A stretch of 64,000 nt of DNA, taken from assembly GCA_963770835.1 (NCBI GenBank), contig CAVYRH010000003.1, positions 1 through 64,000 of the forward strand, given 5' to 3'. The stretch comes from an uncultured Pseudomonadota bacterium (lineage in GTDB: Bacteria > Oederibacteriota > Muellerivitia > Muellerivitales > Muellerivitaceae). Positions 46,749 through 64,000 of this stretch are shown here, in pieces. The notes below the pieces were generated by a model. It made no database searches. It saw only the letters and a list, made by a program, of their open reading frames with translations, and was not told where the DNA came from. Each line of letters begins with the position of its first letter. Within the stretch, counting starts at the first letter, position 1. The position numbers and the translations under genes are program-made.

Positions 46749-47144
46749 ATGGAAGATTTGAAAGAAATCGCCCAAACGATATGCCGGTACCCCCTCATAT
46801 CGGACAAATCGATTCAAGATTATTTAAAAGAATCCGGATTTATGGACCACCGGAAGAACATTTGTGTTGAAGACTTCAAAGAATATTTAGAAGGCCACAA
46901 GGATTTAATAGATAAATGGATTGGGTGGTCAGACAAACGAACGGATTTTGGGTGGACATTCAGCAGTTGGGGGCAGGATGGATATTATCGGATCACTGGA
47001 TATGGCATCAAAGATCCCAAACCGAATCTGGGCCATGAATTAACATTTAAAAGTTCAATTGATGCGGTTGCGACCTATATCAGTCTCGAAATGAATGCTT
47101 GGGCTCAGTTTAACGAAAATAAGCAACCCGGAAAATGGTGGTAA
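46749..47144 (+). CDS. Hypothetical protein (131 aa)
   Basis: G-rich RBS; ORF ends 22 bp before a 28-bp site. Confidence 0.68.
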   Translation: MEDLKEIAQTICRYPLISDKSIQDYLKESGFMDHRKNICVEDFKEYLEGHKDLIDKWIGWSDKRTDFGWTFSSWGQDGYYRITGYGIKDPKPNLGHELTFKSSIDAVATYISLEMNAWAQFNENKQPGKWW

Positions 47145-47166
47145 CGGATTTTTGATAGTTCATGGT

Positions 47167-47194
47167 TGTCCGCGACGGGGACCCTTCGTGAACA
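47167..47194 (+). repeat. 28-bp 11-6-11 site preceding cas1
   Basis: TGTCCGCGACG-GGGACC-CTTCGTGAACA. Confidence 0.85.
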
Positions 47195-47268
47195 ACGAAA
47201 ATAATGGATAATGGTATTCAGGCACTTTCAGCATAAAGATGGTTTACAAAATTTGGGGGGCAGACCAC

Positions 47269-48279
47269 ATGGACTTGCTTATTGATACTTACGGTACCAA
47301 GATCGGCGTAAATGGCGAGCGCATCGTCCTTTCTTTTCCGAAAGTTAAAGAGAAAAAAGAATACCCCATCCATAGACTGGAGAAAATAGTCATACTGCGG
47401 CCGGCCTCGCTCACGACTCACGCGGTTCAGCTCGCGATTGAGCACGATGTTGATATCGTCTATCTCGGTTCTTTTGGCAAGCCCATCGGAAGACTATTTT
47501 CAAGCGAACCAAAAGGGCTGGCGAGTCTTCGTAAAGCGCAACTGGAAGCGTCAACTTCGCTTGAGCGATCGTTCAAAATCGCGAAAGAATTAGTGCGGGG
47601 CAAATGCGCTAATCAGCTCGATCTACTCCGATATCTCGCGTACCGATATAAAAAGGATGTGGGGACCGAACTCTTACAAGCGCAGACCCTTTTTGATGTC
47701 TTGGACAATGTCCCGTGTTCGGAGAAAGGCAAGGAGCAACTCCTTGGTACGGAAGGATACATCGCGGACAAATATTTCAGCGGGTTAAAAAAATTCTATA
47801 GATTCCCGGGCCGAAAACCACAAGGCAGGGACCAGTTTAACAGCGTACTGAATTATGGTTAGGGCATCCTTTACAATGAAGTCGAACGGGCATGCCTTTA
47901 CGTCGGTCTTGATCCATATCTCGGCCTCTACCACAGTGAACGCTATGGTAAGCCTGCCCTCGTTCTCGATCTTGTCGAAGAATTCCGCGTACCAATCGTC
48001 GACTCGGTGCTTTTCCCGCTTTTCATAGAAAAGAAACTGAGCCAACGGAAATATTTTGAAAAAACCGCGGTTGGGCAATATCTGTTATCGCCTGAGGGAA
48101 AAAGCGTCGTGGTGGGGGCGATCATGAGGCGGTTGAATGAAACGACGGCATGGCGGGGGAAACAATATACTCTTAAGCAGATCATAGATAACCAGATTAG
48201 GGCGTTGGCACGTCACTTTGTCGAAAAGGAGGACAAGTACAACCCGTTTCGTGCGGAAAAACTTTTTTCGATATCATGA
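47269..48279 (+). pseudogene. cas1: CRISPR-associated integrase Cas1 with a premature TAG at 47860-47862
   Basis: LLGTEG, DQFNSVLNYG(Y)GILY, GLDPYLGLYH, LVLDLVEEFR; the second copy has TAC at the same codon. Confidence 0.92.
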
Positions 48280-48611
48280 ACAATTTCAATGCCATCACCC
48301 TAGTATCGTGGGAAACGCGCGACTGGCGGCATCGGGACAAGGCGGTTCTGTGGTGCAAGAATTATGGTCTCAAGCCGGTTTTCCGGAATATGTATATCGG
48401 AAAATTGTATTCAAAAGAACGGGAAAAACTCGAGAATAAATTCAAGGGGGCTTTCGCAAAGAAGACCGAAAAGTTTTTTATCAGTACGCTCTGTCGGTCG
48501 TGCTTTGAAGATTCGGTTTTCGGTGGTACGCTTAGTTCTAAGAAAGATGATGTCGACATTGAAACTGCGTTTGAACTTATCCAAATCACGCCGAATTCGG
48601 CGGAACGGTGA
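48276..48611 (+). CDS. cas2: Divergent Cas2-like protein
   Basis: Overlaps the cas1 stop (ATGA); Cas2-like pattern LVSWET, CKNYGLKPV, YIGKL, LCRSCF; canonical YDI replaced by WET. Confidence 0.72.
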   Translation: MNNFNAITLVSWETRDWRHRDKAVLWCKNYGLKPVFRNMYIGKLYSKEREKLENKFKGAFAKKTEKFFISTLCRSCFEDSVFGGTLSSKKDDVDIETAFELIQITPNSAER

Positions 48612-48633
48612 AAAACACCAATAATTGCAGGCT

Positions 48634-48670
48634 CCTGCACATGCCTGTCGCAAAAAGGATAGTGTGCAAC
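48634..48670 (+). CRISPR. CRISPR-like repeat 1 (37 bp)
   Basis: CCTGCACATGCCTGTCGCAAAAAGGATAGTGTGCAAC, 22 bp after cas2; TGCACA/TGTGCA terminal stem; three identical copies. Confidence 0.72.
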
Positions 48671-48815
48671 TAAGAGACTACCGAGATCGAAGGACGACTC
48701 TTAAAATTTTTGCGGGCAACTTACTTATGTAACAGAATCAGTCCTTGCCAGGGCCTTTCGCAAGAAACGAGTCCCCCAAACCCTGATTTTGAGAAATTTT
48801 CTTAAAAGAACTTAA

Positions 48816-49643
48816 ATGAAAACCAGAGAGAATATACAATTACAACCATTTTTAAAATGGGCTGGCGGTAAACGTTGGCTGGTTTCTAAATACTCAAAAA
48901 TATTTTTAAAACCGTTTAATACTTATTTTGAACCATTCCTGGGTAGTGGGGCGGTGTTTTTCCACTTAAAACCAAAAAAATCAGTTCTTTCAGATGTTAA
49001 TAAAGACTTAATCGATACGTTTCGTGCGATAAGGAATAATTGGAAAGGTGTTGTAAGTGAATTGAAGAAGCATAATTCGAAACATTCCACAAATTACTAT
49101 TACAAAATGAGAGATTGGAAGCCCAATTCCGCCAATAAAAAAGCTGCACTTTTTATTTATTTAAATCGCACTTGTTGGAATGCTTTGTATAGGGTTAATA
49201 AAGAGGGGAAGTTTAATGTCCCTATTGGAACGAAATTAAATGTTTTACTTGAAACGGATGATTTTGAAGCAGTTTCTAATGCCCTAAAAAATGTAACATT
49301 CAAAGACGGAGATTTTGAACATATTTTAGATACGGCAAAAAAAGGGGATTTCATTTACCTTGATCCGCCTTATACGGTTACACATTCAAATAACGGATTT
49401 ATTAAGTACAATAATCATATTTTCAAATGGGAAGATCAATGCCGACTAGCAAGTGTTTCAAAAGATTTGATAAACCGCGGCTGTGCAGTTGTTATAAGCA
49501 ATGCTTATCACAACAGTATCTTTGATTTATATAAAGGGTTTTACTATTTGGGTTTGAAACGCCACAGCCTTTTAGCCGCCGATCCAAGGAAAAGAGGAGA
49601 TTATAAAGAGTGCCTTTTTTCGTCTTTCCCAATCAAAATTTGA
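48816..49643 (+). CDS. Dam-family DNA adenine methyltransferase
   Basis: FLKWAGGK, EPFLGSGAV, FIYLDPPY. Confidence 0.93.
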   Translation: MKTRENIQLQPFLKWAGGKRWLVSKYSKIFLKPFNTYFEPFLGSGAVFFHLKPKKSVLSDVNKDLIDTFRAIRNNWKGVVSELKKHNSKHSTNYYYKMRDWKPNSANKKAALFIYLNRTCWNALYRVNKEGKFNVPIGTKLNVLLETDDFEAVSNALKNVTFKDGDFEHILDTAKKGDFIYLDPPYTVTHSNNGFIKYNNHIFKWEDQCRLASVSKDLINRGCAVVISNAYHNSIFDLYKGFYYLGLKRHSLLAADPRKRGDYKECLFSSFPIKI

Positions 49644-49655
49644 CGGGAGTTTACA

Positions 49656-50630
49656 ATGGCCGATGAAAATGTTTTTGGTGGATTCCTTTTACAAGAAAAA
49701 CCCCCAATTTATTTAGCTGCAATACCAGGAAAATGGTTGTTAAAACACACAACTCCTTCTTGGCGATTAGAAAATCCAGAAGAAGGTTTTCAAAGAGTTG
49801 TCCAAGAAAAAAGGGCTAGAGAAATAGCGACTGCTGTTTTAAATCAAAAACGAATATTTCCAAACGCAATTGTTTTAGCTACGGATATTCAAAATTTCGA
49901 GGCACGAAAAGGCGAGATAAGCATTGGAAATAGGATTAAATTTCTTGTTGTTGATGGGCAACATAGGTTGTGGGCTCAAAAATTTTCAGAATTTGAGGCT
50001 ATATATGCTTGCACCATTCATTGTGGCCTTGATGAAGTAAAAATGGCGGAATTATTTATCGAGATTAACAACAACCAGAAACGGGTTCCGTCTTCTCTTC
50101 GCTGGGATCTTGTTAGATTGGTTAGGCCGGATGAGGATCCATTTGGAATTGAAGCATCTGAACTTGTTTTTGAATTGGCGACAAATGAATCGAGCCCCTT
50201 ATATCAAAGGATTGATTTAACGGGAGAACAAAACGAAATCAGTTTGAAACAAGGTTCTATTGCTCCTGAATTCAAACATATTTTTTCTTTAAGAGATTCC
50301 CCATTCAAAGATTTAAATTTTGAAGTGGTTGTTGACAGCATCATTAAGTATTTGGCTGCAATTAAATCAATGGATGCTGATGGTTGGAAAAAAGGGAAAT
50401 CTGCTTTTTACCAGGCTAGGGTATTAAGGGTTTTAATAAAAATATTACCTGAGATCATTAAAAAAGAAGGAGTCGATGTTTCGAAAATAACAGCAATTTC
50501 CTATAAAAACCACTTGGAAAAAATTAAAGAGAATAAAATCACAAGAGAAGCTTTGACGGCTCAACATGGGAATTCGGGCATTAAAGCTATTTATGATGAG
50601 ATACATTCTCAAATATTTGGTAGAAGTTAA
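49656..50630 (+). CDS. DGQHR-domain protein (DndB/ParB-like)
   Basis: FQR, FPNAIVL, VVDGQHR, FIEINNNQK. Confidence 0.88.
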   Translation: MADENVFGGFLLQEKPPIYLAAIPGKWLLKHTTPSWRLENPEEGFQRVVQEKRAREIATAVLNQKRIFPNAIVLATDIQNFEARKGEISIGNRIKFLVVDGQHRLWAQKFSEFEAIYACTIHCGLDEVKMAELFIEINNNQKRVPSSLRWDLVRLVRPDEDPFGIEASELVFELATNESSPLYQRIDLTGEQNEISLKQGSIAPEFKHIFSLRDSPFKDLNFEVVVDSIIKYLAAIKSMDADGWKKGKSAFYQARVLRVLIKILPEIIKKEGVDVSKITAISYKNHLEKIKENKITREALTAQHGNSGIKAIYDEIHSQIFGRS

Positions 50631-51499
50631 TGAATTTATTTGATTTTTCTCAAGCGCAATATTTTTGTGGCAGTCATGTTTCGGCTTTGAGAAATCGGTC
50701 CGTTGGGCTGCGGAACTTCTTTGTGGCTCGGCCTAGAACCTTAAATTTATTAAGAGAGGGGACGCCTGAATATAATGAGTTTCGGGATGGTCTTTTGTGT
50801 GATATCGAAAGAAATTTATTTTTATCAATCTCACTTTATAGAAGATCTTTAGATTTAATGATGACCAGCTCGGCTAGTTGGGCTTTTGTTACCCTTTATT
50901 ACAGTTCGTTTCATGCAGCGTCAGCAATTATGGGGTTGTTCGGGGGAGTCTCAAAGGTTCCTGAATATATTGTCGATGTCGTTAGAGGAAACTCTGGGCG
51001 GCAAGAGCTGCGAATAATTAGAAATCTTGGTAATAATCAAAGGATATTAAGAAATTTTTCTGCATACAATGGTCCGCACAGAGTTTTTTGGGACATATTT
51101 TACCCATCAAGCGCTGGATTAACTGCATGGATTCCTGATCAAAGTTTACATATTGCATTGACCCCGGTTAGTAATGATCGGTTATGGCAAATTAACAATA
51201 GAAATGATTTGAATTATAACTCCCTTGATTCATTGGAGGTTTGCAAAAGTTTTGAGAATAACTTTAATTCCACAAATTTCCCCAGTTCCCTTCCTGGCGT
51301 TTTAAGTACCCAATTTTCAATAACTGAAGCAATGATTCTTACGGCTGTCTTTTTTTCTAAAGAATTTAATTTGGGAACCGACTCCTTGAAAAACCTTAAT
51401 CCTGCTGGCGCGAGAGAAACGAAATTGCGGAATTTAATCCGGGATGGTGTATTGCCTGATTTGGCACAGAAATCTAAAATCGCAGAAATGATATCTTGA
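50630..51499 (+). CDS. Hypothetical protein with HEPN-like motifs
   Basis: WAFVTLYYSSFHAASAI and RNDLNY. Confidence 0.55.
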   Translation: MNLFDFSQAQYFCGSHVSALRNRSVGLRNFFVARPRTLNLLREGTPEYNEFRDGLLCDIERNLFLSISLYRRSLDLMMTSSASWAFVTLYYSSFHAASAIMGLFGGVSKVPEYIVDVVRGNSGRQELRIIRNLGNNQRILRNFSAYNGPHRVFWDIFYPSSAGLTAWIPDQSLHIALTPVSNDRLWQINNRNDLNYNSLDSLEVCKSFENNFNSTNFPSSLPGVLSTQFSITEAMILTAVFFSKEFNLGTDSLKNLNPAGARETKLRNLIRDGVLPDLAQKSKIAEMIS

Positions 51500-51580
51500 A
51501 TTCTTAAAATTGGCTTCTAATTATTTAAGCCCATAATTATTTTAAATGATAAATGGTAATTTTTTCAAAAGGGGCAACCG

Positions 51581-52282
51581 ATGTGTGTCTCCTACCAACT
51601 AAACCTCCCCATTAAAGACATCGCCAAGACCTTTAAAGCGAAGCCCCCCAAGAAGATTCTCTGGGACCCCTCCAAATTAGAAAGAATCCGGCCTTCCCAC
51701 TTGGTCCCCATCATCATGGTCGACCCCGCAACAGGGGAGAGGGTCATCAAGGAAATGATTTGGGGAATGCCCTTTTTCGACTTCCTGAAAAAGAAGCTGG
51801 TCAGGCACCACCTTTTCAACGCAAAGGCCGAAACCATCACCGAAAAGAAAACCTTTAAGACCAACTTCCAAAAAAACCGCATCCTGGTCCCCATCAACCC
51901 GGCCTTCATCGAATGGAAAGACGTCGGCGGAAAGAAAAAACAACCCTACCTTATCGGCTTAAAACCCAAGGCCCCCTTCGCCTTTGCCGGCATTTGGGGG
52001 AAGTGGAACCTCACAGTTGAGGACGATAAGACGCTTGAAGCGAAGTTTAATGTGAACCCGAAATATGACCCTCCAAAGAAGGACTTTGAGTTTTACACCG
52101 TCATCACGACCACACCAAATGAGCTTATGGCCGACATTCACAACCGAATGCCTGTCATTCTGGACCCCAAGAACTACGACGCCTGGCTGGACCCTAATAT
52201 CCCGGACGCGGGGATCCTCAAAGGCCTATTAAAGCCCTACCCGGCCGCCAAGATGCAAGCCAAAGCCGCGGAGAAAGTTTAA
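51581..52282 (+). CDS. SOS response-associated peptidase (SRAP/YedK family)
   Basis: N-terminal Cys2, FNAKAET, FIEWK, AFAGIW, IHNRMPVIL. Confidence 0.92.
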   Translation: MCVSYQLNLPIKDIAKTFKAKPPKKILWDPSKLERIRPSHLVPIIMVDPATGERVIKEMIWGMPFFDFLKKKLVRHHLFNAKAETITEKKTFKTNFQKNRILVPINPAFIEWKDVGGKKKQPYLIGLKPKAPFAFAGIWGKWNLTVEDDKTLEAKFNVNPKYDPPKKDFEFYTVITTTPNELMADIHNRMPVILDPKNYDAWLDPNIPDAGILKGLLKPYPAAKMQAKAAEKV

Positions 52283-52755
52283 TGAAAAAACCGGAAACCT
52301 TACCCACAAGGCAAATAGGTAAACTCGGGGAACTTCTAGTCCAATACAAGTTACTCCAATATGGCATCGAATCCGCTCCTTTAACCACGGACGCAGGAAT
52401 AGACTTGGTGGCTTACGGCCCCAAAATCAAAAGGGCAATTACAATCCAGGTAAAAACAAACTTGAAGCCAAAGCCGGGGGGAGGAAAAGGAAAGCCCGCA
52501 ATAAATTGGTGGGTGGATGACGATAACCCGGCCCAAATTTACGCCTTTGTAGATATTTCCACCGAAAAAGTCTGGATATTTTCCAAAAAAGAATTCGAAA
52601 AGGTAGCCCAACAGCATTCGAGCGGCCGGCGGCAACTATATATGACCCTTTCTTCCGAATCAGAATTGAAAGGAAAAATTGGAAAGGCGGCTCAAATATT
52701 AAAATTTAACGACTACTTGTTAGTAAATCGAATAAGCACCTTAATAGGAAAATAA
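52282..52755 (+). CDS. PD-(D/E)XK nuclease-family protein
   Basis: GKLGE, GIDLVA, IQVKT. Confidence 0.7.
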   Translation: MKKPETLPTRQIGKLGELLVQYKLLQYGIESAPLTTDAGIDLVAYGPKIKRAITIQVKTNLKPKPGGGKGKPAINWWVDDDNPAQIYAFVDISTEKVWIFSKKEFEKVAQQHSSGRRQLYMTLSSESELKGKIGKAAQILKFNDYLLVNRISTLIGK

Positions 52756-52757
52756 AA

Positions 52758-53309
52758 ATGGACTCCTTCGAAAACGTCATCACAAGTCTCTTGGAGCGGG
52801 AAGGCTTCTGGACCCGTACATCCGTCAAGGTTGAATTAACAGATGTAGAAAAGAAGAAAATCGGATGGAAAACCAATCCCCGTCCGGAATTTGACATTGT
52901 GGCTTACAAAGGGAAAACGAATGAATTATGGCTCGTCGAATGCAAATCCTATCTCAACTCCGGGGGTGTAAATTATAGAGCCTTCAATGGAACGAACCCC
53001 GGTTTCGCCAAAAGATTTAAATTATTTAACAAACAAAAAAAATATAGGCTTGTAAGAAAGATTTTATTAGAAAAGTTGGTTGAGGCGGGTTTTTGCCGTC
53101 CAAACCCCAAGGTTAGCCTTGTATTAGTAGCGGGTAATGTCGTTGAAAGTCATCGTGAAAAATTAAAGTCGCATTTTGATAAAAAAGGCTGGATTTTGTG
53201 GGATGAAAAAGAATGGCACCCCAAGCTTAAGAAACTAGCCGGAGAAGGTTATGAAAACTCCATCGTTTCTGTAGTCAGTAAAATGCTTTTGCGAAGAACT
53301 GATAAATAG
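52758..53309 (+). CDS. PD-(D/E)XK restriction-endonuclease-like protein
   Basis: FE, EFDIVAY, LVECKS. Confidence 0.72.
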   Translation: MDSFENVITSLLEREGFWTRTSVKVELTDVEKKKIGWKTNPRPEFDIVAYKGKTNELWLVECKSYLNSGGVNYRAFNGTNPGFAKRFKLFNKQKKYRLVRKILLEKLVEAGFCRPNPKVSLVLVAGNVVESHREKLKSHFDKKGWILWDEKEWHPKLKKLAGEGYENSIVSVVSKMLLRRTDK

Positions 53310-53490
53310 ACAGGAGTTTTCTTTGCCCAAACCCTTCCTCAAATCCGACTTCCCTCCGCCTCGAATCAATTTTAACCAAACAAAATACATCCCTTTTCCT
53401 TCCTGCCCGGTTTTCACCCACCCCTGTTTAGTTTAACGACAAGGCGCTATTTCATTTACAACCTAACCCTCCGGGCGGACACTGATGTTG

Positions 53491-53584
53491 TTCGGTGTGG
53501 CAAGACCCAAAGGCCTACCACATTGGACCCCCGCGAAACGCGGATCTCCCCGGCATAGCGAGATCCCACCTCACCTAGGAGGTG
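53491..53584 (+). ncRNA. Putative structured 5' leader RNA, copy 1
   Basis: About 93-nt repeat with four hairpins, the last covering the Shine-Dalgarno; paralog at 54353. Confidence 0.55.
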
Positions 53585-53590
53585 TCCGTC

Positions 53591-54325
53591 ATGTCTAAAA
53601 GTCCCATTTATAATTATGTTCCAGCCTGGTTCACCCAACGAACCGTTGAAATTTACAAACCCATGCCACCTTATGGCAGCCCCAAGGTGGTACGCACTCA
53701 GGTAGTTCCGGAAGACGCACCCGATTTCGCCTGTCATTACTGCCTGGAACCCTTACCCCTGATTCAATTTGAATCCGCCGACGAGTACCGCGTTTGCCCC
53801 ATTTGCCGGCACCGGGTATTGGATGCTTTTCTTCAAACCCCGGTTCACCTTTTAACCCGGGCCCAACAGGTGGAAATGTTCATAGGGGAACTTATTTTCA
53901 TCAAACAATGGAGATCGGTATTGGATTTGAGTTTGGAATTCTTCGAGCATGCTTCCTACGAAAACGAAAACGAGAAAGCCGATTTTAAGGAAGCCTGGGA
54001 CTTTATCGTTTCCCAAAAAGAAGTTGTTCTCGCCATGAATGGGCGGGTGGAAGTGGACTTCTGCATGGTTTTTTTGGATTACAAAAAACCGAAAAGCAAT
54101 TTAAAGGTTTATCTCTATAAACCTCGGGATTTCTGGTTTGACGCCCATGTGCAGAGCCGTTTGGGGTGCAGGCCCATTGAAGTGAACGGGTTTCAACTGC
54201 GCCTGGTAACCGCCACCAATTGGGCCGCCTACGGCTACCCCCGCTGTGAACAAATGGCCGTGATCGGGCTTTTGAAATGCCGCGGCCAATTGGCGTGGGA
54301 CGAAGTCTACGGCAAAAAAGCCTAA
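53591..54325 (+). CDS. Hypothetical zinc-ribbon protein
   Basis: CHYC...CPIC; paralog of 55271-55990 (shared TPV...TRAQQ, GFQL). Confidence 0.7.
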   Translation: MSKSPIYNYVPAWFTQRTVEIYKPMPPYGSPKVVRTQVVPEDAPDFACHYCLEPLPLIQFESADEYRVCPICRHRVLDAFLQTPVHLLTRAQQVEMFIGELIFIKQWRSVLDLSLEFFEHASYENENEKADFKEAWDFIVSQKEVVLAMNGRVEVDFCMVFLDYKKPKSNLKVYLYKPRDFWFDAHVQSRLGCRPIEVNGFQLRLVTATNWAAYGYPRCEQMAVIGLLKCRGQLAWDEVYGKKA

Positions 54326-54352
54326 GAAGCCGAACATAAAAAGTTGGTTTGA

Positions 54353-54445
54353 TTCGGTGGGGCAAGACCCAAAGGCCTACCCCATTGACCCCCGCGAAAC
54401 GCGGATCTCCCCGGAATAGCGAGATCCCACCTCCTGAAAGAGGTG
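54353..54445 (+). ncRNA. Putative structured 5' leader RNA, copy 2
   Basis: Near-identical to 53491-53584 with a compensatory base-pair change. Confidence 0.55.
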
Positions 54446-54449
54446 AAAC

Positions 54450-55274
54450 ATGGAAAAATTATTCGGCGTTGTATTCTATTTAATTGGTGTCGTTCAATTT
54501 ATCGCGGTGGATATGGGGGCGGCCGGAAGTATCTTAGAAAACGAGGGGTGGCATTGGATTTACTTACCCATTCGGTTGGCCTCTTTCGTAATGATGCTTT
54601 GCTTAAACTGGTACATTTTTATTTGGGCTCCAGGACAATTTTACCTGGTTCAAGAAACCGTAGTCCCGCCTAAAAATTCTCCGCCTCTTCATCCAACGCC
54701 TGTCGTTCCCGTCGACCCAAAGCGAGAACTATTCAAACAACCCACTCTTAAACCAGAGGCAGTTCATTACCCAATAAGGAAAACAGTTGTACTCAAACCC
54801 CGAGGGGATTCCGCTTCCTATGAAGTTCCCGCCGCCAAGACACCACTAACGCCTGATGAAAAGAAGTTTGCCGCGATGGTATCGCGGTTGAAAGAATTAG
54901 ATAAAGAAGGCGTAAGTATTGACGAGAAGGCTGAAGAAATACGGCGTTTGGGGGGCGAATTAAAGCGGGTAAATGACAAAAACGGGAATGAGATATGGCC
55001 ATTGAGCGAGACCCAATGGGAAAGGGAAATAGCGGAAAGACTTAAGGGTATCCATTGCCCCAATTGCCGAGGGATAGATATTGGCATGATCCTTTACGGC
55101 CAGTTGCCTAGAGGGGATGGTCGGTTAAACCATCTGATTCGCATGAAGTTATTTATACCGGGCGGCGGCCTCTCGGGCCTCGAGAATCTTTACTGTAATG
55201 ACTGCGAGAGCTATTGGGTAAGTGATAAATATTTAAGTGAGACCCCTCCTCCAGCGAGAGGCGGTGAAAAATGA
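54450..55274 (+). CDS. Hypothetical membrane protein with C-terminal zinc ribbon
   Basis: Two N-terminal TM segments; CPNC...ILYG...CNDC. Confidence 0.65.
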   Translation: MEKLFGVVFYLIGVVQFIAVDMGAAGSILENEGWHWIYLPIRLASFVMMLCLNWYIFIWAPGQFYLVQETVVPPKNSPPLHPTPVVPVDPKRELFKQPTLKPEAVHYPIRKTVVLKPRGDSASYEVPAAKTPLTPDEKKFAAMVSRLKELDKEGVSIDEKAEEIRRLGGELKRVNDKNGNEIWPLSETQWEREIAERLKGIHCPNCRGIDIGMILYGQLPRGDGRLNHLIRMKLFIPGGGLSGLENLYCNDCESYWVSDKYLSETPPPARGGEK

Positions 55275-55990
55275 ATGACTTTCGTTCTTCTATTTTAGAT
55301 CCTCCCAGCAGTACGATTAACCACCCCCCAAAAACGGAACGGCCCTTGCGCCATAAGCGCCACCGGGACAAGCGGAAAAGATGCCCCTATTGCTTATGGG
55401 ATTTGACCGACTACGACCCGGAAGAAATTAAGGAACGGGGTAATCTATGCCCCCTTTGCCGCCACGGCATCCTGGAAAATCTTTTGTCCACCCCTGTCTA
55501 TGAATTTACCCGGGCCCAACAGTGGGATCTTTTGGCCAATGAAATGGAATATATCTGGGATGCGGAGCACCTTGACGTGGAAACCTACATCTTCGCAATG
55601 GGAAGTTATTACAACCCGGACTACGGCGAGGCCAAGGAAAGGTTGTGCGGCATGTTGGTGGAAAAGGAAGCGGTGTTGAGGCTGGAAGAGGAATTTATCG
55701 AGGCCGAGGGGGAATTGGACCTTCTTATCATCGCTTACTTGAATAAGTTGGCCGCGTGGAGGGGGGACATGGCCAGGCGGCTTTTCGTGGGGCGGCAATG
55801 GCGGCTTTCGGCCCGGCGGCTGAGCATGACCCATTTCAGTGAAAGGGAAGCGGTCGGGTTCCAACTGGGTTTCATACAGTCCTGTCCCTGGGGGGCCTTC
55901 GGGAGCCTGGACAAAAAGGAAAAGACCGTGGTCTATCTCGAGAAAATATTGGAGAAGCTTACTTGGGACCAGGGAAATATGGGGGCGTGA
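55271..55990 (+). CDS. Hypothetical zinc-ribbon protein
   Basis: CPYC...CPLC; overlaps the upstream stop; paralog of 53591-54325. Confidence 0.7.
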   Translation: MNDFRSSILDPPSSTINHPPKTERPLRHKRHRDKRKRCPYCLWDLTDYDPEEIKERGNLCPLCRHGILENLLSTPVYEFTRAQQWDLLANEMEYIWDAEHLDVETYIFAMGSYYNPDYGEAKERLCGMLVEKEAVLRLEEEFIEAEGELDLLIIAYLNKLAAWRGDMARRLFVGRQWRLSARRLSMTHFSEREAVGFQLGFIQSCPWGAFGSLDKKEKTVVYLEKILEKLTWDQGNMGA

Positions 55991-56360
55991 AATACAATCA
56001 GTAAAAAAGTGGGTCCAGCCCGAAATACCCCTGTAAAATATCCCATGCCCAAACCCTACAATAAATCCGACTTTACACCCGCCGTCAAAGATCCCAAAAC
56101 CGGCCAGGTTTGGACCGGTGAAGACCATAAGGAAGCGATAAATAAAGCCCACAACGAGGGAAATAAGAGTGTTTATTTTGAAAACACCGGCTTTCTTCAT
56201 AAGGACGGCATCTTTTTCACCCGTTCCCAAACCGAAAGGCAATGGGGCTTCAAAACCAGCGCCGATCTGCGCTGAAAACGTTTTTCCACCCCTCAAAATC
56301 CTCTTACCACTTTCCTCGTTTTTGTTCATAATACCGGCCATTCCAACTGGAGGTATTTGG

Positions 56361-57092
56361 ATGCGTAAATATTTGTCTTTCGTCCTCGTTTTTTTCGCCC
56401 TGGTATTCCTGAAAAACAACAACGCCTTCGCCGACGACTCGACCGCCAAAACAGCCCCTGGCGACGACAATGGCAAATTCTACGGCCAGCTCGTCGATTC
56501 CGGGGTGGAGGTCCGCAAGTGCATCCTCCAATATTTCGTGGACTACAAGAAATACCTTGTTGAAGGCAAGGAAAACAGGCCGGTTTCGTACGGGAAAAAG
56601 TTCCCGTGGAAATACTGGCCAGCCTATAAAAAAATGGACGCCGCCATCACCAGGATTGCCGGCAACAAGGAATATCCCGACTATTTCCTCACCTATGGGG
56701 CCAAAATCTTCCGCAAGCTCGAGGAGCCGGAGGTGAAGGCCTTTTATGGAACCCAATGGTCAAAAGAGGTGGAGGACGCCGTTCTTTCCCATTTCGAGCA
56801 GGACAGCCTTTCGGATTACAGCCTGGACGATTTCGACGCCAAGAAGGACGCCGGGCTCACTGAAACCCCGCTCCCCCTGCCCAAGGCCCAACCCCTCAAA
56901 CCCCTTGTCCTATATGACTCCTCGACCGACCCGGAGACCATGAAGGCACGGGCCACCCTGGGAATTTCCAACCCCCCGGACACCTCCGACGGCCAAGAGA
57001 ATGTACCGGCCCAACCGACCGCCACACCTAAACCCAAGGACGTGATCGGGGATGCTGCCGGCGATGCGGCCAAAAAAGTCTTTGGCTTTTGA
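56361..57092 (+). CDS. Secreted hypothetical protein
   Basis: GGAGG RBS before ATG 56361; signal peptide ending AFA. Confidence 0.7.
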   Translation: MRKYLSFVLVFFALVFLKNNNAFADDSTAKTAPGDDNGKFYGQLVDSGVEVRKCILQYFVDYKKYLVEGKENRPVSYGKKFPWKYWPAYKKMDAAITRIAGNKEYPDYFLTYGAKIFRKLEEPEVKAFYGTQWSKEVEDAVLSHFEQDSLSDYSLDDFDAKKDAGLTETPLPLPKAQPLKPLVLYDSSTDPETMKARATLGISNPPDTSDGQENVPAQPTATPKPKDVIGDAAGDAAKKVFGF

Positions 57093-57334
57093 TGAAAGAC
57101 CTCCCCTTCTGGCGCGGTGCCATCCACAACGCAAAGACGGTCCTCGTCCTGAAATCCGTCGGGGAAGACCTGGCCACCTTCAAGAACCAGGCCGACTTTA
57201 TCGGCGACAAGCCCAAGCTGAACGAGGCCCAGCTGGAAACCCTCCGTCTGGAATATTCCCTGAAAATGAAGAAGTTGACCGCCGAAGCCATGCCTCCACG
57301 GCCGCCCGGGAAGCCGAAATTTAAAAATGAGTGA
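57089..57334 (+). CDS. Hypothetical protein (81 aa)
   Basis: Translationally coupled to the upstream ORF. Confidence 0.55.
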   Translation: MMKDLPFWRGAIHNAKTVLVLKSVGEDLATFKNQADFIGDKPKLNEAQLETLRLEYSLKMKKLTAEAMPPRPPGKPKFKNE

Positions 57335-57383
57335 TTTTAAGAACCAGGATTTAAGGTAAAAAATAATATCAAAGGAGTCATTT

Positions 57384-58094
57384 ATGAAAATAATTCTTTA
57401 CCTTTGTTTGGTTTTTAGTGGTGCTTCACTTTTATTCGCAAAAGGGGCAATGGACACCATTAAATCAAACACGGTTGAAACGGCTCAAGACGATCCAAAC
57501 AAAGCAGAATCCGATTACCAAAGATACATTAAGGACAAAGCCGGGGATCTTATAATCGAAAAAGATAAATTCGAGAATCGAACAGTTATCAAAACCAATT
57601 TTGGTAGGGGTTGGGCGAATCGCAATGAATTAGAATTCTTTAAGCACAAAGGTGAAGATGGCTTTGACTTAGCTGGGGTTGAATTAAAAATAGAAGCTTC
57701 AATATTCGACAGTAAAAAGAACTCGGATCAATATGTTCTTTTGTTCAAAACAACTAATCCAGACACACCTTTTGGTGATAAAAAAATCGATGAAAAAAAC
57801 TTCAAATTCATGGACTGTAATGATTTTCATTGGCTGGTCGATGGAGCACCATTATCGTTTGTAAGTGAGAAATATTCTAATCATGTGGGGAAGGACTTAG
57901 TGGATACCATTGAAACTTTTACGGTTGTTTTAAACAAAAAACAATTTGAAAAGCTGGCTGTTGCATCAACCGTTGAATGCAAAATATGCGATACCCAATT
58001 TGTCTTTAACAAGAAGCACTTTTGGGTTTTGCGTTGGGTTATGGAGAGGGCTAAGGAATTACGGGCCACGAAGGAAACTAATACAAAAAATTGA
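57384..58094 (+). CDS. Secreted hypothetical protein, AT-rich
   Basis: AAGGAG RBS and signal peptide. Confidence 0.7.
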   Translation: MKIILYLCLVFSGASLLFAKGAMDTIKSNTVETAQDDPNKAESDYQRYIKDKAGDLIIEKDKFENRTVIKTNFGRGWANRNELEFFKHKGEDGFDLAGVELKIEASIFDSKKNSDQYVLLFKTTNPDTPFGDKKIDEKNFKFMDCNDFHWLVDGAPLSFVSEKYSNHVGKDLVDTIETFTVVLNKKQFEKLAVASTVECKICDTQFVFNKKHFWVLRWVMERAKELRATKETNTKN

Positions 58095-58218
58095 TCTAAA
58101 TTCCCTGAAAATTCGAGCTTTTCAAATTTGCCAAATCCCCAAAACTTGACCGATTCTCCCAGGAGGGCGTATATCTAAGGTATACCGATGTATACCTTTT
58201 CCCCTTTTTGGAGGTTTT

Positions 58219-58659
58219 ATGGCCACTCTCTACTTTTTGGGCCCGGCCCAGGAGATATTCAGGGACCTTTCCTTGCCCCTTATAGAACCTCCCGTGCCTG
58301 CAGGGGCTCCGGGCCCCCCGGAGGAATACAAAGAAAAGCGGATCGACCTGAACCGGCTTTTCAACTTCAACGCGTCCACTTTCACCTGGCTTGCCCAGGG
58401 CGATTCCATGATCGGCGCGGGGATCCACACGGGGGACATCCTGATCGTCGACCGGGCCCTCCAAGCGGCCCTGGGGGATATCGTCATAGCGGAAATCAAC
58501 CGGCAGCCCACGGTCAAGCGCCTTGGAAAAAACAACAACGCCCCGGCCCTGCTCCCCGAAAACGTGAACCACAAACCCATCCCCATCGACGAGGTCGAGG
58601 GCATCCGGGTTTGGGGGGTGGTTACGGGGGTCTTTCATCGCTTCAAGACCTATCGGTGA
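58219..58659 (+). CDS. umuD: UmuD-like S24 peptidase (Pol V accessory subunit)
   Basis: VPAG cleavage site, GDSMIGAGI, TVKRL, VWGVVT; upstream of umuC. Confidence 0.88.
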   Translation: MATLYFLGPAQEIFRDLSLPLIEPPVPAGAPGPPEEYKEKRIDLNRLFNFNASTFTWLAQGDSMIGAGIHTGDILIVDRALQAALGDIVIAEINRQPTVKRLGKNNNAPALLPENVNHKPIPIDEVEGIRVWGVVTGVFHRFKTYR

Positions 58660-58829
58660 GTGTTTTTAAAAATATCTTTCACGCTACAGCCCCGGATTTC
58701 GACGATGAACTCCCCGACCCGTACTCGGATACCCCCTCTTTGGAGGCTTTCATGCCCCGCAACTCGAAAGGAATTTTATGACGCGCGGGGCGATACCATT
58801 TTCAATAAACGGTTTATAGGAGAAATGGG

Positions 58830-60101
58830 ATGGACAAAATCTTCGCCTTGGTCGACTGCAACAACTTCTACGTTTCCTGCGAAAGGGTCTTTGATTTCAC
58901 CCTCCGCGACCGCCCTGTAGTGGTTCTTTCCAACAACGACGGCCTGGTAATTGCCCGTTCCAACGAGGCGAAGGCGCTCGGTTTCAAAATGGGCGACGCC
59001 GTTTTCCAGATGCAGGAAGCCATCAAGGAGAACCAAGTCGTCGTAATGTCCTCCAACTACGCTCTCTACTTCGACATGCGCGACCGCGTCCGGGAGGTGC
59101 TTTCCAATTTCACCCCCCGTTTGGAAAAATACAGCATCGACGAATGTTTCCTCGACTTCACCGGGATTCCGAAGGACGAGTTAGAAGATTACGGCCGCAG
59201 GATAAAAGCAAAGGTTGAAAAGTGGACCGGGATTCCTGTTTCGGTCGGAATCGGATCGACAAAGTGTCTCTCGAAACTCGCCAATAAGCTTGCGAAGAAA
59301 TCCGAGAAGGCCCGAGGGGTGCTGGACATCTACAAATCCCCGCACCTGGACAAAGCTTTGGAAGCAACGGACGTTGGCGACCTTTGGGGTGTGGGCCAGG
59401 CCTATGAAGGGATGCTTAAATCCAACGGCATCAACAACGCCCAGCAGTTCCGGGACGCACCGGAGCATTGGGTCCGATCCAGGATGACCGTCGTCGGAGC
59501 CCGGATTCAATCTGAGCTAAAAGGGGTGTCATGTATTGCTCTTAAAGAAATCCCTGATCCTCAACAAATGGTCGGCACCGCCCAGGGATTCGGTGTCCCC
59601 ATCGAAACGATTGAGGAACTAAGGGAGGCGGCCGCCACCTATGCCAACAAGGAAGCCGTCAAACTTCGCCAGCAAAAACAATGCGTCAAGGAGCTGGTTG
59701 TTTGGGTCCAAACCAACCCTTTCGGGAGGGACCCCCAATACGGAAACAAGGCCGAGATCGTTTTTCCCGTGGCCACGAATGACCCCTCGCTCATCATAAA
59801 GAAAGTGGTAAACGCCGTGGAAATGCTTTATAAAAAAGGATATCGGTACAAACGAATCGGGCTCAACGCGACCAAGCTGGAACTGGAGGATTGCGTCCAG
59901 GAGCACCTTTTCGTGAAGCCAGAGGACACCAAACGGCAGAATCTTTTACGGGTGGTGGACCAATTGAACGAGGTCAGCGGAGCCGGCACGGTCCGGACCG
60001 CCTCCGTTGTGATCGACGCCCGTTGGATGACCCGTTTCTCGAAACAGTCACCCCACTACACCACTAAAGTTAGCGATATTCCAATTGCCCGGGTGGGGTA
60101 G
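58830..60101 (+). CDS. umuC: Y-family DNA polymerase UmuC
   Basis: [37 protein letters not shown]. Confidence 0.94.
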
Positions 60102-60135
60102 GAAAAACCAGAGAACACAAAGATCCACACCCAAC

Positions 60136-60504
60136 TTATGGTTTTGATTTTGGAAAATAGGTCGTGGCCTCGCCCGCCACTTGCCCATTTACGACCACAT
60201 AAACCTTCACGTTCTTTTTGGCTTTCGGAAATGGAACTTCGATTGATTTTGCCTTTTCCGAGACAATTTGGCCGCAGGGTCCATCCTTGTGCGTAAATTC
60301 AAAGGTCAGGTATTCGGTATCTGGATCTTCGACCTTACCGGGTGGAATGCCGACCTTGAGTTCTCCCGGGACATAACAAGTATCCAATGTGGTAACCGTC
60401 ACATGAATGCCATAAATATCGCCATGTAGCCAGGCCATCCCAATTTTTGCCCCCAGATGAAACACCATATCGTTTGGCATAATCCAAATCCTTTCCGATC
60501 CCAA
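60136..60504 (-). CDS. Hypothetical protein
   Basis: 122-aa ORF convergent on umuC; start uncertain. Confidence 0.5.
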   Translation of the reverse strand: MGSERIWIMPNDMVFHLGAKIGMAWLHGDIYGIHVTVTTLDTCYVPGELKVGIPPGKVEDPDTEYLTFEFTHKDGPCGQIVSEKAKSIEVPFPKAKKNVKVYVVVNGQVAGEATTYFPKSKP

Positions 60505-60720
60505 TATTTGAGTTGTTTCTTTTCATATTTCTTTCCGGGAAACAATCCCAAGTAATTTATCATTTTAAAACTGGTGGATAACTAAAAAAGCCAACCTCTT
60601 CAGGAACTGGGCGTCGTTATTTTAATGATAAACTTTCAATTATTTTTCGTAATAGCGTTTTTATTGTTTAAAAAGTGTCTTTTATTATTTTGGTAAAAAT
60701 TATTTTGACCCCCTTAAATT

Positions 60721-60757
60721 CCTGCACATGCCTGTCGCAAAAAGGATAGTGTGCAAC
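60721..60757 (+). CRISPR. CRISPR-like repeat 2
   Basis: Exact copy of the 37-mer, joined directly to mid-cas1 sequence. Confidence 0.72.
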
Positions 60758-61484
60758 AACTTCGCTTGAGCGATCGTTCAAAATCGCGAAAGAATTAGTG
60801 CGGGGCAAATGCGCTAATCAGCTCGATCTACTCCGATATCTCGCGTACCGATATAAAAAGGATGTGGGGACCGAACTCTTACAAGCGCAGACCCTTTTTG
60901 ATGTCTTGGACAATGTCCCGTGTTCGGAGAAAGGCAAGGAGCAACTCCTTGGTACGGAAGGATACATCGCGGACAAATATTTCAGCGGGTTAAAAAAATT
61001 CTATAGATTCCCGGGCCGAAAACCACAAGGCAGGGACCAGTTTAACAGCGTACTGAATTATGGTTACGGCATCCTTTACAATGAAGTCGAACGGGCATGC
61101 CTTTACGTCGGTCTTGATCCATATCTCGGCCTCTACCACAGTGAACGCTATGGTAAGCCTGCCCTCGTTCTCGATCTTGTCGAAGAATTCCGCGTACCAA
61201 TCGTCGACTCGGTGCTTTTCCCGCTTTTCATAGAAAAGAAACTGAGCCAACGGAAATATTTTGAAAAAACCGCGGTTGGGCAATATCTGTTATCGCCTGA
61301 GGGAAAAAGCGTCGTGGTGGGGGCGATCATGAGGCGGTTGAATGAAACGACGGCATGGCGGGGGAAACAATATACTCTTAAGCAGATCATAGATAACCAG
61401 ATTAGGGCGTTGGCACGTCACTTTGTCGAAAAGGAGGACAAGTACAACCCGTTTCGTGCGGAAAAACTTTTTTCGATATCATGA
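60758..61484 (+). pseudogene. cas1: 5'-truncated duplicate of cas1 without the nonsense codon
   Basis: Matches 47553-48279 except TAC versus TAG; lacks the first ~95 codons. Confidence 0.9.
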
Positions 61485-61816
61485 ACAATTTCAATGCCAT
61501 CACCCTAGTATCGTGGGAAACGCGCGACTGGCGGCATCGGGACAAGGCGGTTCTGTGGTGCAAGAATTATGGTCTCAAGCCGGTTTTCCGGAATATGTAT
61601 ATCGGAAAATTGTATTCAAAAGAACGGGAAAAACTCGAGAATAAATTCAAGGGGGCTTTCGCAAAGAAGACCGAAAAGTTTTTTATCAGTACGCTCTGTC
61701 GGTCGTGCTTTGAAGATTCGGTTTTCGGTGGTACGCTTAGTTCTAAGAAAGATGATGTCGACATTGAAACTGCGTTTGAACTTATCCAAATCACGCCGAA
61801 TTCGGCGGAACGGTGA
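61481..61816 (+). CDS. cas2: Duplicate Cas2-like gene
   Basis: Identical translation to 48276-48611. Confidence 0.72.
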   Translation: MNNFNAITLVSWETRDWRHRDKAVLWCKNYGLKPVFRNMYIGKLYSKEREKLENKFKGAFAKKTEKFFISTLCRSCFEDSVFGGTLSSKKDDVDIETAFELIQITPNSAER

Positions 61817-61838
61817 AAAACACCAATAATTGCAGGCT

Positions 61839-61875
61839 CCTGCACATGCCTGTCGCAAAAAGGATAGTGTGCAAC
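61839..61875 (+). CRISPR. CRISPR-like repeat 3
   Basis: Exact copy of the 37-mer. Confidence 0.72.
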
Positions 61876-62962
61876 ACTCACGGCCTTAAATTTGGGTGGG
61901 CCGGTGACGAACTTAAATCAACTTTCAGGTGCAGCCACGGTCTCGGGCAAGACTTATGTGTGGTGTGGGAACAGGATTTGTGAGGAAAGAGACGCAACAG
62001 GCAAACAGGTACTCAAAAGGTTCTTTTCCAACGGCGAGCAAGACAATGGACAAAACCTGTACTATACAAAGGACCATCTGGGAAGTGTTCGTGAGGTGAT
62101 GGATGCTTCCGGAAACATCCAAGGTCAGTTTGATTATGATCCGTGGGGCAGGCAGACCCAAATAGCCGGAACTATGCAGCCTTCGTTTGGCTACACTGGT
62201 CATTTTCAGGAACCGACGACAGGGTTACTGCTTTCCAAATATCGTGTCTATAACGCGGATATGGGAAGGTGGACATCGGGAGACCCAAAAGGGCAGGTCG
62301 CGGGAGCAAACATTTATTCTTATGTAAGGAACAATCCTCTAAACACAAGAGACACATTAGGCCTTTATGATTCGAATTCCTTTATAGATAACTGGTTGTA
62401 TAACCCTGATTCTGTATCTGATTTTATCGATCCTGACTATTTTGATTGGTTTACTCCGCAAGTAGCCAATACAGCTGAAAGAGTTGCCCAAGGGGCTGCG
62501 ATTGTAGGTGGTACCGTTGGCGGTATTTCCACACTTGCAGGGGCCGGAACATTGCTCTACTGCGGTTATGATGTTTTAGCTTCCGGGTCTTCTGCTTACA
62601 CTTCATTCGCAATTGGCAATGTACTTACTGGCGCTGCCCAGACGGGTTTGGGTCTGTTCGGGGGAGCACAAATCATAAATCAAGGTTATCAATTCTTCAC
62701 CAATCCAAATCCTGCATACAGTGAAGGTCAACCACTTTTCCAACAAAATGCTTTAACGACCGCATTGGATCTCGCAGGTGGCTTTGTAGGAAGTTCGACG
62801 ATGGATTTATTAAATGGAGCTGCGAGCGCGACCTCAGATTATTCTGACATGGATCAGCAACAGGAGTCAGGGGACCCGACTAATCAAGCAACGGATACTG
62901 CCCCAGCTTCAACCGATAACTGGTATTGGCAAGAAATTGATTTAAATCCAGATGGGACATGA
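61876..62962 (+). pseudogene. N-terminally truncated RHS-core protein with variable C-terminal tip
   Basis: DHLGSVR, YDPWG, FGYTG, YRVYNADMGRWTSGDP, NIYSYVRNNPL, DTLGL; frame open from the repeat junction, no ATG or RBS. Confidence 0.82.
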
Positions 62963-62969
62963 CTTTTAG

Positions 62970-63526
62970 ATAAACCCTGCCAGCTAACCCCAGGCTTCAG
63001 CCTGGGGGCGAATGGCAGCCCGGAGGGCCGACTGAGTTTGTCGGCCCGAAGGCAAGGAACTGTGGAATGCTCTGGTCATGGGAAAATATTGGTCAGGCGC
63101 ACATACCAGACACCGACTGCAATATCACCTCGTTTGGATACCCAAGTATCGGAAACGAGTCTTGCTTGGCAAAGTTGCCGTCCGCCTGCAAGAGCTGTTT
63201 AGAGAGGCGGCCCACGTCAACCGTTGGGTAATCCACGAATTGAATATTCAGCGAGACCACGTGCATATGCTGATCCAGGTTGAGCCAAAGGTGAGTGTGG
63301 CTAAAGTGGTGCAGGTGCTAAAAGGCGGTACAAGCACCAAGATCAGGCGTGAGTACCCTGAACTTGAGGAGTTTCTCTGGGGGGATAGTTTTTGGGCGGA
63401 CGGCTACTTTGCGGAAAGTATAGGCACTGTGCAGGAGGAGATGATCCGCAAATATATCCGCGAGCAACAGCATGACCAGAGTATGCCGAAAGGTAGAAAC
63501 CCCGGGCTTTAGCCCGGGGAGATTCA
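62970..63526 (+). mobile_element. IS200-group element (tnpA only); ends approximate
   Basis: Terminal hairpins CCCCAGGCTTCAGCCTGGGG (62988-63007) and CCCCGGGCTTTAGCCCGGGG (63500-63519). Confidence 0.85.
63078..63512 (+). CDS. tnpA: IS200/IS605 HUH (Y1) transposase
   Basis: YHLVWIPKYR, DHVH, LKGGTS, FWADGYF, IRKYIREQ. Confidence 0.95.
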   Translation: MGKYWSGAHTRHRLQYHLVWIPKYRKRVLLGKVAVRLQELFREAAHVNRWVIHELNIQRDHVHMLIQVEPKVSVAKVVQVLKGGTSTKIRREYPELEEFLWGDSFWADGYFAESIGTVQEEMIRKYIREQQHDQSMPKGRNPGL

Positions 63527-63614
63527 TTAGCAAATAAACTAACTTTCTTGAATCGAACCTTTTTGGGGGATAATTACCAAACAAGTTTCTTGTCCAATAA
63601 TTTTGGGAGTGAAA

Positions 63615-63896
63615 ATGGCCGATAAGAAAAGAATTATTGTGAATGTTTTTTTTGTGCTGACAGTACTATTGGCGGGAATTGCAGCTCTCTTTTTATTTTT
63701 TTTAATGCCGGTAATACATTCTAAGTTTGCAATTTTCCATGAATATGGATTTTTGTGGCCTCTTTTTTACATTCTTTTTATTGTTTTATACTTTTTTGTT
63801 TTTTTTAAGTTGATCATTTGGTTATTAATCAAGTTTGTATATATGAAAATTATTGCTTGGATTGACAGAACAGACCCCCAAAGAAAAATCCCTTGA
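63615..63896 (+). CDS. Small two-TM membrane protein, possible RHS immunity protein
   Basis: AT-rich, hydrophobic, downstream of the RHS tip; start approximate. Confidence 0.5.
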   Translation: MADKKRIIVNVFFVLTVLLAGIAALFLFFLMPVIHSKFAIFHEYGFLWPLFYILFIVLYFFVFFKLIIWLLIKFVYMKIIAWIDRTDPQRKIP

Positions 63897-64000
63897 GGGT
63901 TCGAGGTTCAAAAACGCTTTTCCAGAGGAAGTTAATTGAATAACACTTTTAAAATACTGGGATTCTTTTTTCTTTCTACGGCCCTGTTCTTTATTCAGAA

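Follow-up and report, generated by a model that had tools for sequence, protein, structure and literature searches.

A truncated second cas1-cas2 copy in an array of kilobase inserts, and a mobile Cas1-Cas2 cassette that may act as a DNA end-joining integrase

Introduction

Cas1-Cas2 is thought to measure out some 30–40 bp of DNA. In the window, the 64,000-nucleotide stretch of DNA analysed here, a cas1-cas2 locus heads an array of 37-bp repeats, and most of that same locus recurs further down the array as a kilobase-sized insert between two full repeats. How this second copy came to stand there, and whether the enzyme it partly encodes may have written it, are the questions raised by the locus. 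The window lies on contig C3 and shares its numbering; C5, C15, C16 and C17 are further contigs of the same genome (G000).

The cas1-cas2-leader module

All window features given below lie on the forward strand. The module begins at a 28-bp palindromic site (11-6-11; 47167..47194), measures 1,504 bp and holds cas1 and cas2 only. The cas1 gene (47269..48279, 336 codons) is recognised by PF01867 and TIGR00287; the best solved match of its product is 4n06 (E 1e-34), and the best PADLOC models are generic Cas1/Cas1b. Residues E162, H222 and E237, which we take to be the catalytic Glu-His-acid triad, align with conserved positions in 4n06 and 7cr6. A TAG at 47860-47862 (codon 198) stops the window cas1 before H222, the copy at 60758-61838 is devoid of residues 1–94, and the C15 and C16 modules have an uninterrupted cas1; should the stop be genuine, Cas1 activity would come from one of those two copies. 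The adjoining cas2 (48276..48611, 111 amino acids) is divergent. Its product has no Pfam or NCBIfam match, PADLOC Cas2 models recognise it at E 2e-7, and a profile of 20 members of its clade matches 12 solved chains at E≤1 (best 3e-4), nine of which are named Cas2. YD is the usual Cas2 motif; most clade members have no acidic residue at that position, and a CxxC is invariant.

Between cas2 and the first repeat lies a 22-bp leader (48612..48633), conserved together with the cas2 3' end and kept in relatives, including module copies that have no cas1. An AT-rich stretch before the second repeat was considered as a leader and set aside, as it actually closes the first spacer, the conserved leader being the one next to cas2. 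Likewise rejected was the notion of the module as a transposon with a matching right end, no conserved sequence being found beyond the last repeat. No sigma-70-like promoter was detected in 47100-48900, and an Rfam scan returned group II introns only.

A truncated second copy with one new junction

According to the original prediction, 60758-61838 equals 47553-48633. Sequence comparison finds the two identical at 1080 of 1081 positions; the sole mismatch, overlooked at first, is the G at 47862, which creates the TAG at codon 198 of the upstream cas1 where the copy has TAC (Tyr). Widened to include one chance base at the left, the match extends over 1119 bp (47552-48670 = 60757-61875), and counted with the following 37-bp repeat alone the direct repeat is 1,118 bp long, with an offset between the copies of 13,205 bp. 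The self-derived insert itself (60758..61838, 1,081 bp) comprises cas1 codons 95–336, the whole of cas2 (61481-61816) and the leader (61817-61838). The abrupt start inside cas1 directly after a full repeat and the end one base before the next repeat were confirmed in the assembly, as was the lack of extended homology at the repeat-to-cas1 junction: the left edge falls in cas1 codon 95, immediately after the full 37-bp repeat, with a strict overlap of one base, and on the right the copy ends with the base that abuts the next repeat. There the native leader-repeat border has simply travelled with the fragment, so that repeat 3 (61839..61875), behind the copied leader, has an inherited native junction, and a single new joint, at the 3' end of repeat 2 (60721..60757), is enough to account for the copy.

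Compared with the modules of the genome, the copy is 100% identical to the C15 cas1-cas2 locus and 99.8–99.9% identical to those on C3 and C16, from which it differs at one and two positions, respectively. The mismatch at 47862 may have arisen by mutation afterwards or be a fault in the consensus, and with this possibility the argument for a donor at another locus falls away. Recombination between the two copies to the left of the stop at 47860-47862 would putatively restore an uninterrupted cas1.

Partial modules are found in relatives as well. Of 13 truncated cas2-leader-repeat copies there, the 12 whose loci were read are preceded by the 28-bp site, an IS-like end or other DNA, and none begins directly after a repeat; the expectation that similar self-fragments would appear at homologous loci was thus not borne out by any exact parallel among these 12. 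In seven loci (L057, L064, L075, L048, L077, L145, L146) cas1 has been lost, and 33–280 bp of the cas2 3' end, the leader and the repeat are kept, often at the head of an array. Such cas1-less modules are candidate non-autonomous landing pads that would bound the minimal leader. In the present genome, a second repeat-to-cas1 junction occurs at C3:384203, where 23 bp of cas1 are followed by an IS.

Repeat arrays and their contents

The 37-bp repeat has inverted arms and is present in 27 copies in the genome, 27 of 27 being full length with exact borders, and full repeats flank the inserts. Eleven mutually identical copies form the window array (C3:48634-102028, starting with repeat 1 at 48634..48670), nine lie at C3:383-401 kb, four on C15 and three on C16. 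The first spacer and the self-derived insert therefore share an 11-repeat array that reaches C3:102028, the other 16 repeats being located elsewhere in the genome. The 281 kb separating the two C3 arrays was considered as one giant spacer, and this was judged unlikely because the second array lies in a mobile element shared with G004 and G014.

A scan of the genome found no ordinary CRISPR array. Same-strand gaps below 30 kb span 213–12,145 bp in this genome (n=22, median 2,481 bp; one is inflated by ~1 kb by an artefact) and 30–26,097 bp in relatives (n=47, median 1,305 bp). In the pooled neighbour gaps below 30 kb (n=69) the median is 1,798 bp and two gaps are 50 bp or shorter, so that uniform spacers of ~30–45 bp are not a feature of these arrays. 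Nor is the duplication an isolated mishap in an otherwise ordinary CRISPR array, inserts of kilobase size being usual in these arrays. The arrays are also mosaics. Among the 112 repeats examined (27 here and 85 of the 92 in relatives) a leader precedes 16, and arrays often have no leader or closing repeat. Unlike repeats stand on the two sides of 12 of the 66 complete spacers, and some arrays that are uniform apart from this enclose repeats of a deviating type (C3:385264/393106, L056, L066). Some repeats form convergent inverted pairs, 109 and 144 bp apart and in one case ~1.4 kb apart (C3:400723-400905, L081:5253-5470, L086).

Inserts begin and end inside genes, and both host and self DNA are found among them. 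Spacer 1 (48671..60720, 12,050 bp) consists of mobile-element DNA encoding a Dam methylase, a DGQHR protein, SRAP and umuD/umuC; it has homologs at 65–92% in 21 of 30 other family genomes, and is a piece of a mobile-element type found across the family. It also contains an 82–86-bp direct repeat (53488-53572 and 54349-54433) before two similar unknown genes. Spacer 3 (61876..64000 in the window, running on to C3:64335) starts inside an Rhs core gene and holds an IS200 transposase, and overlapping pieces of one Rhs-IS200 region adjoin repeats at four positions, in spacer 3 and three others. On C16, a 7.5-kb spacer (C16:21562-29110) carries a queA-tgt block (genes named from translations) that is 70–74% identical to the genome's own C5 copy and 78–80% to G001, and that consists of core genes from another species. 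A 7.8-kb spacer between two variant repeats (C3:385301-393105) holds putative nitric oxide reductase, hemerythrin and Crp/Fnr genes, again named from translations. A tract of short ATACC-type repeats is found at C3:382930-383300, L153 and L078, near-identical in G014; the array repeat interrupts this tract in G000 and in G030, not at the same place in the two.

Donor junctions and end bias

Visible donors illuminate how inserts are joined. For three of the 66 complete spacers a contiguous donor, not flanked by a repeat, is 100% identical over the full length: an 885-bp spacer at C3:399838-400722 (donor in G004, inverted), a 379-bp spacer of G023 (donor DNA seen in G027) and a 559-bp spacer of G027 (donor DNA seen on C17 of this genome and in G004). 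These matches establish that two-ended capture without a fixed length occurs. The 885-bp spacer is itself nested, inverted, in a 971-bp G004 spacer (L047:6851-7821), with exactly 43 bp missing at each end. Single ends with an uninterrupted copy elsewhere in this genome number 13 (IS elements, Rhs, cas1 and mobile DNA; 89–100% identity), and of 153 ends tested in relatives 15 have one in the DNA searched, three self-matches of degenerate repeats being left out. At these 28 donor junctions microhomology is nil in 21, one base in five and two bases in two, any overlap in 7 of 28 being the chance level. Inspection by eye of the flanks of the 13 donors here and the 15 in relatives gave no common motif that could serve as a PAM.

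These junctions bear on a duplication that needed no Cas1, made by template switching or microhomology joining. The last four bases of the repeat do occur at 47552-47555, and the 37-bp repeats permit recombination on the other side. However, joining through this four-base match would not account for the three additional bases seen, the strict overlap of one base falls within what chance produces across the 28 junctions, and the exact borders of all 27 repeats would be left unexplained, which makes this route very improbable.

The ends of inserts share a weak but consistent composition. Counted back from the 3' end that is joined, the 200 ends (89 on the leader side, 111 on the spacer side) have C at −3 in 8 cases, G at −4 in 18 and A at −5 in 97, and the scarcity of C at −3 recurs in separate sets, with 2 of 50 in this genome and 6 of 150 in relatives. 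Leader-side and spacer-side profiles correlate with r=0.77, as opposed to 0.03±0.10 for interior windows (maximum 0.25) and 0.12 for a complement control; being relatives that hold the module through recent transfer, the genomes are not independent. A bias common to both spacer ends is what would be expected if one enzyme joins both, and one active site handling both insert ends would be its simplest reading. Scored against this bias, the left end of the copy lies at the median of real insert ends, a level reached by 18% of interior windows. Its right, leader end has a score that only 4 of the 200 real ends match or undercut, and 16% of interior windows score as low.

The original prediction stressed that the copy ends exactly at the leader-repeat border. 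To read this as a second processed end or a special coincidence is not supported, the border being a native junction that scores below 196 of the 200 real ends. With it recedes the literal acquisition of a 1,081-bp fragment cut on its right by Cas1 at that border. Cas1 attacks the leader-repeat border in known systems, and the segment C16:29148-37438 likewise ends with a module at such a border; the C16 case, however, is explained by a module at a 28-bp site inside that segment, and the right end of the copy is unlike a joined end and requires no event at all. Acquisition in this literal form is hardly to be expected.

Reads and assembly quality

Could the junction be an error, stemming from a chimera in a long read or from a wrong connection between the four modules, which are nearly identical? 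The C3 contig does hold uncorrected read errors. At C3:97310-98370, inside a spacer ~35 kb downstream of the copy, ~970 consecutive T are followed by A/T runs, a read artefact, and Rhs frames near the T run in the same array are broken; together the T run and these frameshifted Rhs pieces indicate uncorrected read error in the array that houses the copy, which favours an artefact. Moreover, among contigs of 4 out of 20 read runs (depth ~2–15) over 48671-64000, none listed has repeat followed by cas1, and all have native cas1 upstream of 60757, although these runs are shallow and fragmented, may contain other strains, and neither confirm nor refute the repeat-to-cas1 junction. The TAG at 47862 is likewise in no listed contig from those four runs.

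Several observations speak against an error at this position. A one-base overlap cannot come from a graph mis-join, and a random chimera is unlikely to fall at the exact last base of the repeat. The left end fits the family-wide end bias, and the contig resolves longer repeats, such as 1.4-kb IS110 copies with different flanks. Similar junctions to the genome's own DNA are found in short-read contigs of run X3, in one contig each: a repeat joined to IS200 at 63129, with 27 letters on the short side, and an inverted variant repeat joined to cas2 at 61692. An artefact is thus improbable, though less so than the Cas1-independent route. The suggested loop-out of a 13.2-kb unit between the direct repeats is geometrically possible given the offset, and was seen in no listed contig from the four shallow, fragmented runs.

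How the copy may have been written

Linkage and the junction statistics point to Cas1 as the very probable maker of the repeat-to-cas1 junction, whichever route was taken. The proposal that a repeat end was joined to unrelated DNA at single-base precision is upheld, and self-derived inserts recur in the genome. As to the choice originally offered between self-acquisition and a half-site duplication, Cas1 as the agent holds up well and the half-site retains some standing; acquisition of the bare 1,081-bp fragment has hardly any.

The reading to which we incline, by a slight preference over doubt, is that Cas1-Cas2 captured a longer piece of DNA, extending past the repeat of the module itself, and that the copy is the leading portion of this piece. 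Long double-stranded DNA would have each of its ends bound in a Cas1 active site, and these ends would be joined to the two borders of one repeat, which would be duplicated as in CRISPR adaptation but with neither a length ruler nor a PAM. One end would stem from a break in codon 95 of cas1 in another module copy. Behind it would follow cas2, the leader, repeat 3 and, as a minimum, spacer 3, and the other end would now lie at some repeat border further downstream. Insertion of the 12-kb spacer 1 at the leader repeat would be a later event, for which C15 or C16, where cas1 is uninterrupted, would have provided the enzyme should the local stop be real. In a system that has no effector, capturing its own DNA would not kill the cell. 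Fragments that carry internal repeats would be expected to leave unlike repeats around some spacers, as around 12 of 66, and odd repeats nested in arrays.

A one-ended event would also produce the copy. Here a broken end inside the cas1 of a sister chromosome would be joined to the spacer-side border of the first repeat, and repair would yield a tandem duplication of truncated cas1, cas2, leader and repeat, between whose copies spacer 1 would later be placed. This route requires only the single new junction, and PMC8390005 describes one-ended insertions as the commonest product of S. pyogenes Cas1-Cas2 in vitro, which may mature via repair. Arrays without a leader or closing repeat and the convergent inverted pairs (C3:400723/400869, L081, L086) are in keeping with it, as is the absence from the genome of a second repeat-preceded spacer 3 copy, which capture from the same locus would first yield. 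On the other hand, two-ended capture is directly seen and one-ended events are not; leaderless and inverted repeats can also result from the capture of array pieces and from movement at 28-bp sites; and as the copy matches C15 and not its neighbour, the stop codon would have to be later or an error. The half-site event is therefore rather unlikely, though the most credible alternative to capture of a longer fragment.

Distribution and mobility of the module

Of 98 other genomes in the phylum, 8 have the repeat pattern; they belong to a single family and to five genera. Cas1 at 96–100% identity is found in 4 of 60 other genomes, all of other genera, and this Cas1 is absent from the three same-genus genomes searched; this combination argues for lateral movement of the module. 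Named database records that carry this Cas1 are titled candidate division FCPU426 or uncultured proteobacterium, the next Cas1 relatives (62–71%) are mostly from Patescibacteria, and no relative was found in viral contigs. Among 35 more distant loci a similar repeat follows cas2 in 27; none of these 27 shows a gap of 60 bp or less, and only four show further copies, with gaps of 140–7,672 bp.

The vehicle of this movement is likely the 28-bp palindrome. At three loci here and in G004 and G014 the module starts at the same first base of the site, of which the genome has ~83 copies in co-oriented arrays between single genes; it is also present in 24 of 30 other family genomes. Six copies lie in the window (37686, 38284, 39416, 43454, 45300 and 47167) and ~77 more in the remainder of G000. 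Copies of IS110 and of a group II intron also start at the 28-bp site, and cas1-cas2 is one cassette among those found at such sites, which would likely explain both the mobility of the module and leaderless repeats. No tyrosine recombinase is encoded on C3, C15 or C16, the 12 PF00589 matches of the genome all lying elsewhere.

Significance

Taken together, we consider it fairly probable that this mobile two-gene Cas1-Cas2 cassette is a sequence-independent DNA end-joining integrase that fastens any DNA end to a 37-bp repeat and stores pieces of 30 bp to tens of kb, among them core genes from sister species and parts of the cassette itself. It would thereby form a system of gene capture and genome rearrangement, a functional return to transposase ancestry. 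The significance rests on the system and its junction rules more than on the duplication alone. If this is true, kilobase insertion at a short site with no required end sequence would constitute a new route of gene transfer, as for the 7.5-kb queA-tgt block, and a candidate tool for the site-specific writing or recording of long DNA. It would also put directly to the test the idea that a two-end transposase became a short-spacer integrase through the binding of Cas2, and visible donors make this genome one in which the junction rules can be read and tested. No description of kilobase-spacer Cas1-Cas2 arrays was found in the literature searched, which lay outside subscription papers and preprint supplements, and the accessible part of PMC6509639 has no mention of a 'long spacer'.

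Comparison with known systems

The module resembles a CRISPR adaptation module in its Cas1 with conserved motifs, its Cas2, its short leader, and its 37-bp repeat with inverted arms, full repeats flanking each insert. It departs from one in the size of its inserts (30 bp to 26 kb), in the lack of a visible PAM, in a Cas2 without the acidic YD residue, in the host and self DNA among the inserts, and in the lack of Cas4 or an effector among the five families searched: no RAMP, Cas4, Cas3-HD, Cas9 or Cas12f/TnpB match was obtained in the 96% complete genome (PF03787, PF18019, TIGR01865, PF07282, PF01930). Effector-less loci with Cas1-Cas2 only are described in PMC6990116 as able to accumulate self DNA free of counter-selection, but the self-targeting spacers in question are of normal length, unlike the present inserts.

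The outcome resembles that of a casposase (PMC6977970), a Cas1-family enzyme by which a long DNA is attached through both its ends at a fixed site and this site becomes duplicated, as it would be by the present enzyme; the same paper proposes that Cas2 binding turned such two-end integration into short-spacer integration. In contrast to casposons, no terminal inverted repeats are present, the 200 insert ends being unrelated save for the weak bias, ends are arbitrary, and donors are cut in mid-gene. Cas2 is present, the duplication is of 37 rather than 14 bp, arrays accumulate, and no family B polymerase (polB) was found among the 26 window proteins scanned.

Integrons and CALINs accumulate gene-sized foreign DNA serially at a fixed locus, and so do these arrays. 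Unlike integron cassettes, the inserts carry no recombination site (attC) and have their boundaries within genes, and the enzyme encoded alongside is Cas1 and not a tyrosine recombinase (IntI). The system thus appears to lack the defining features of CRISPR immunity, casposons and integrons alike, and, as far as its sequence reveals, to combine a chemistry like that of CRISPR adaptation with an outcome like that of a casposase or an integron.
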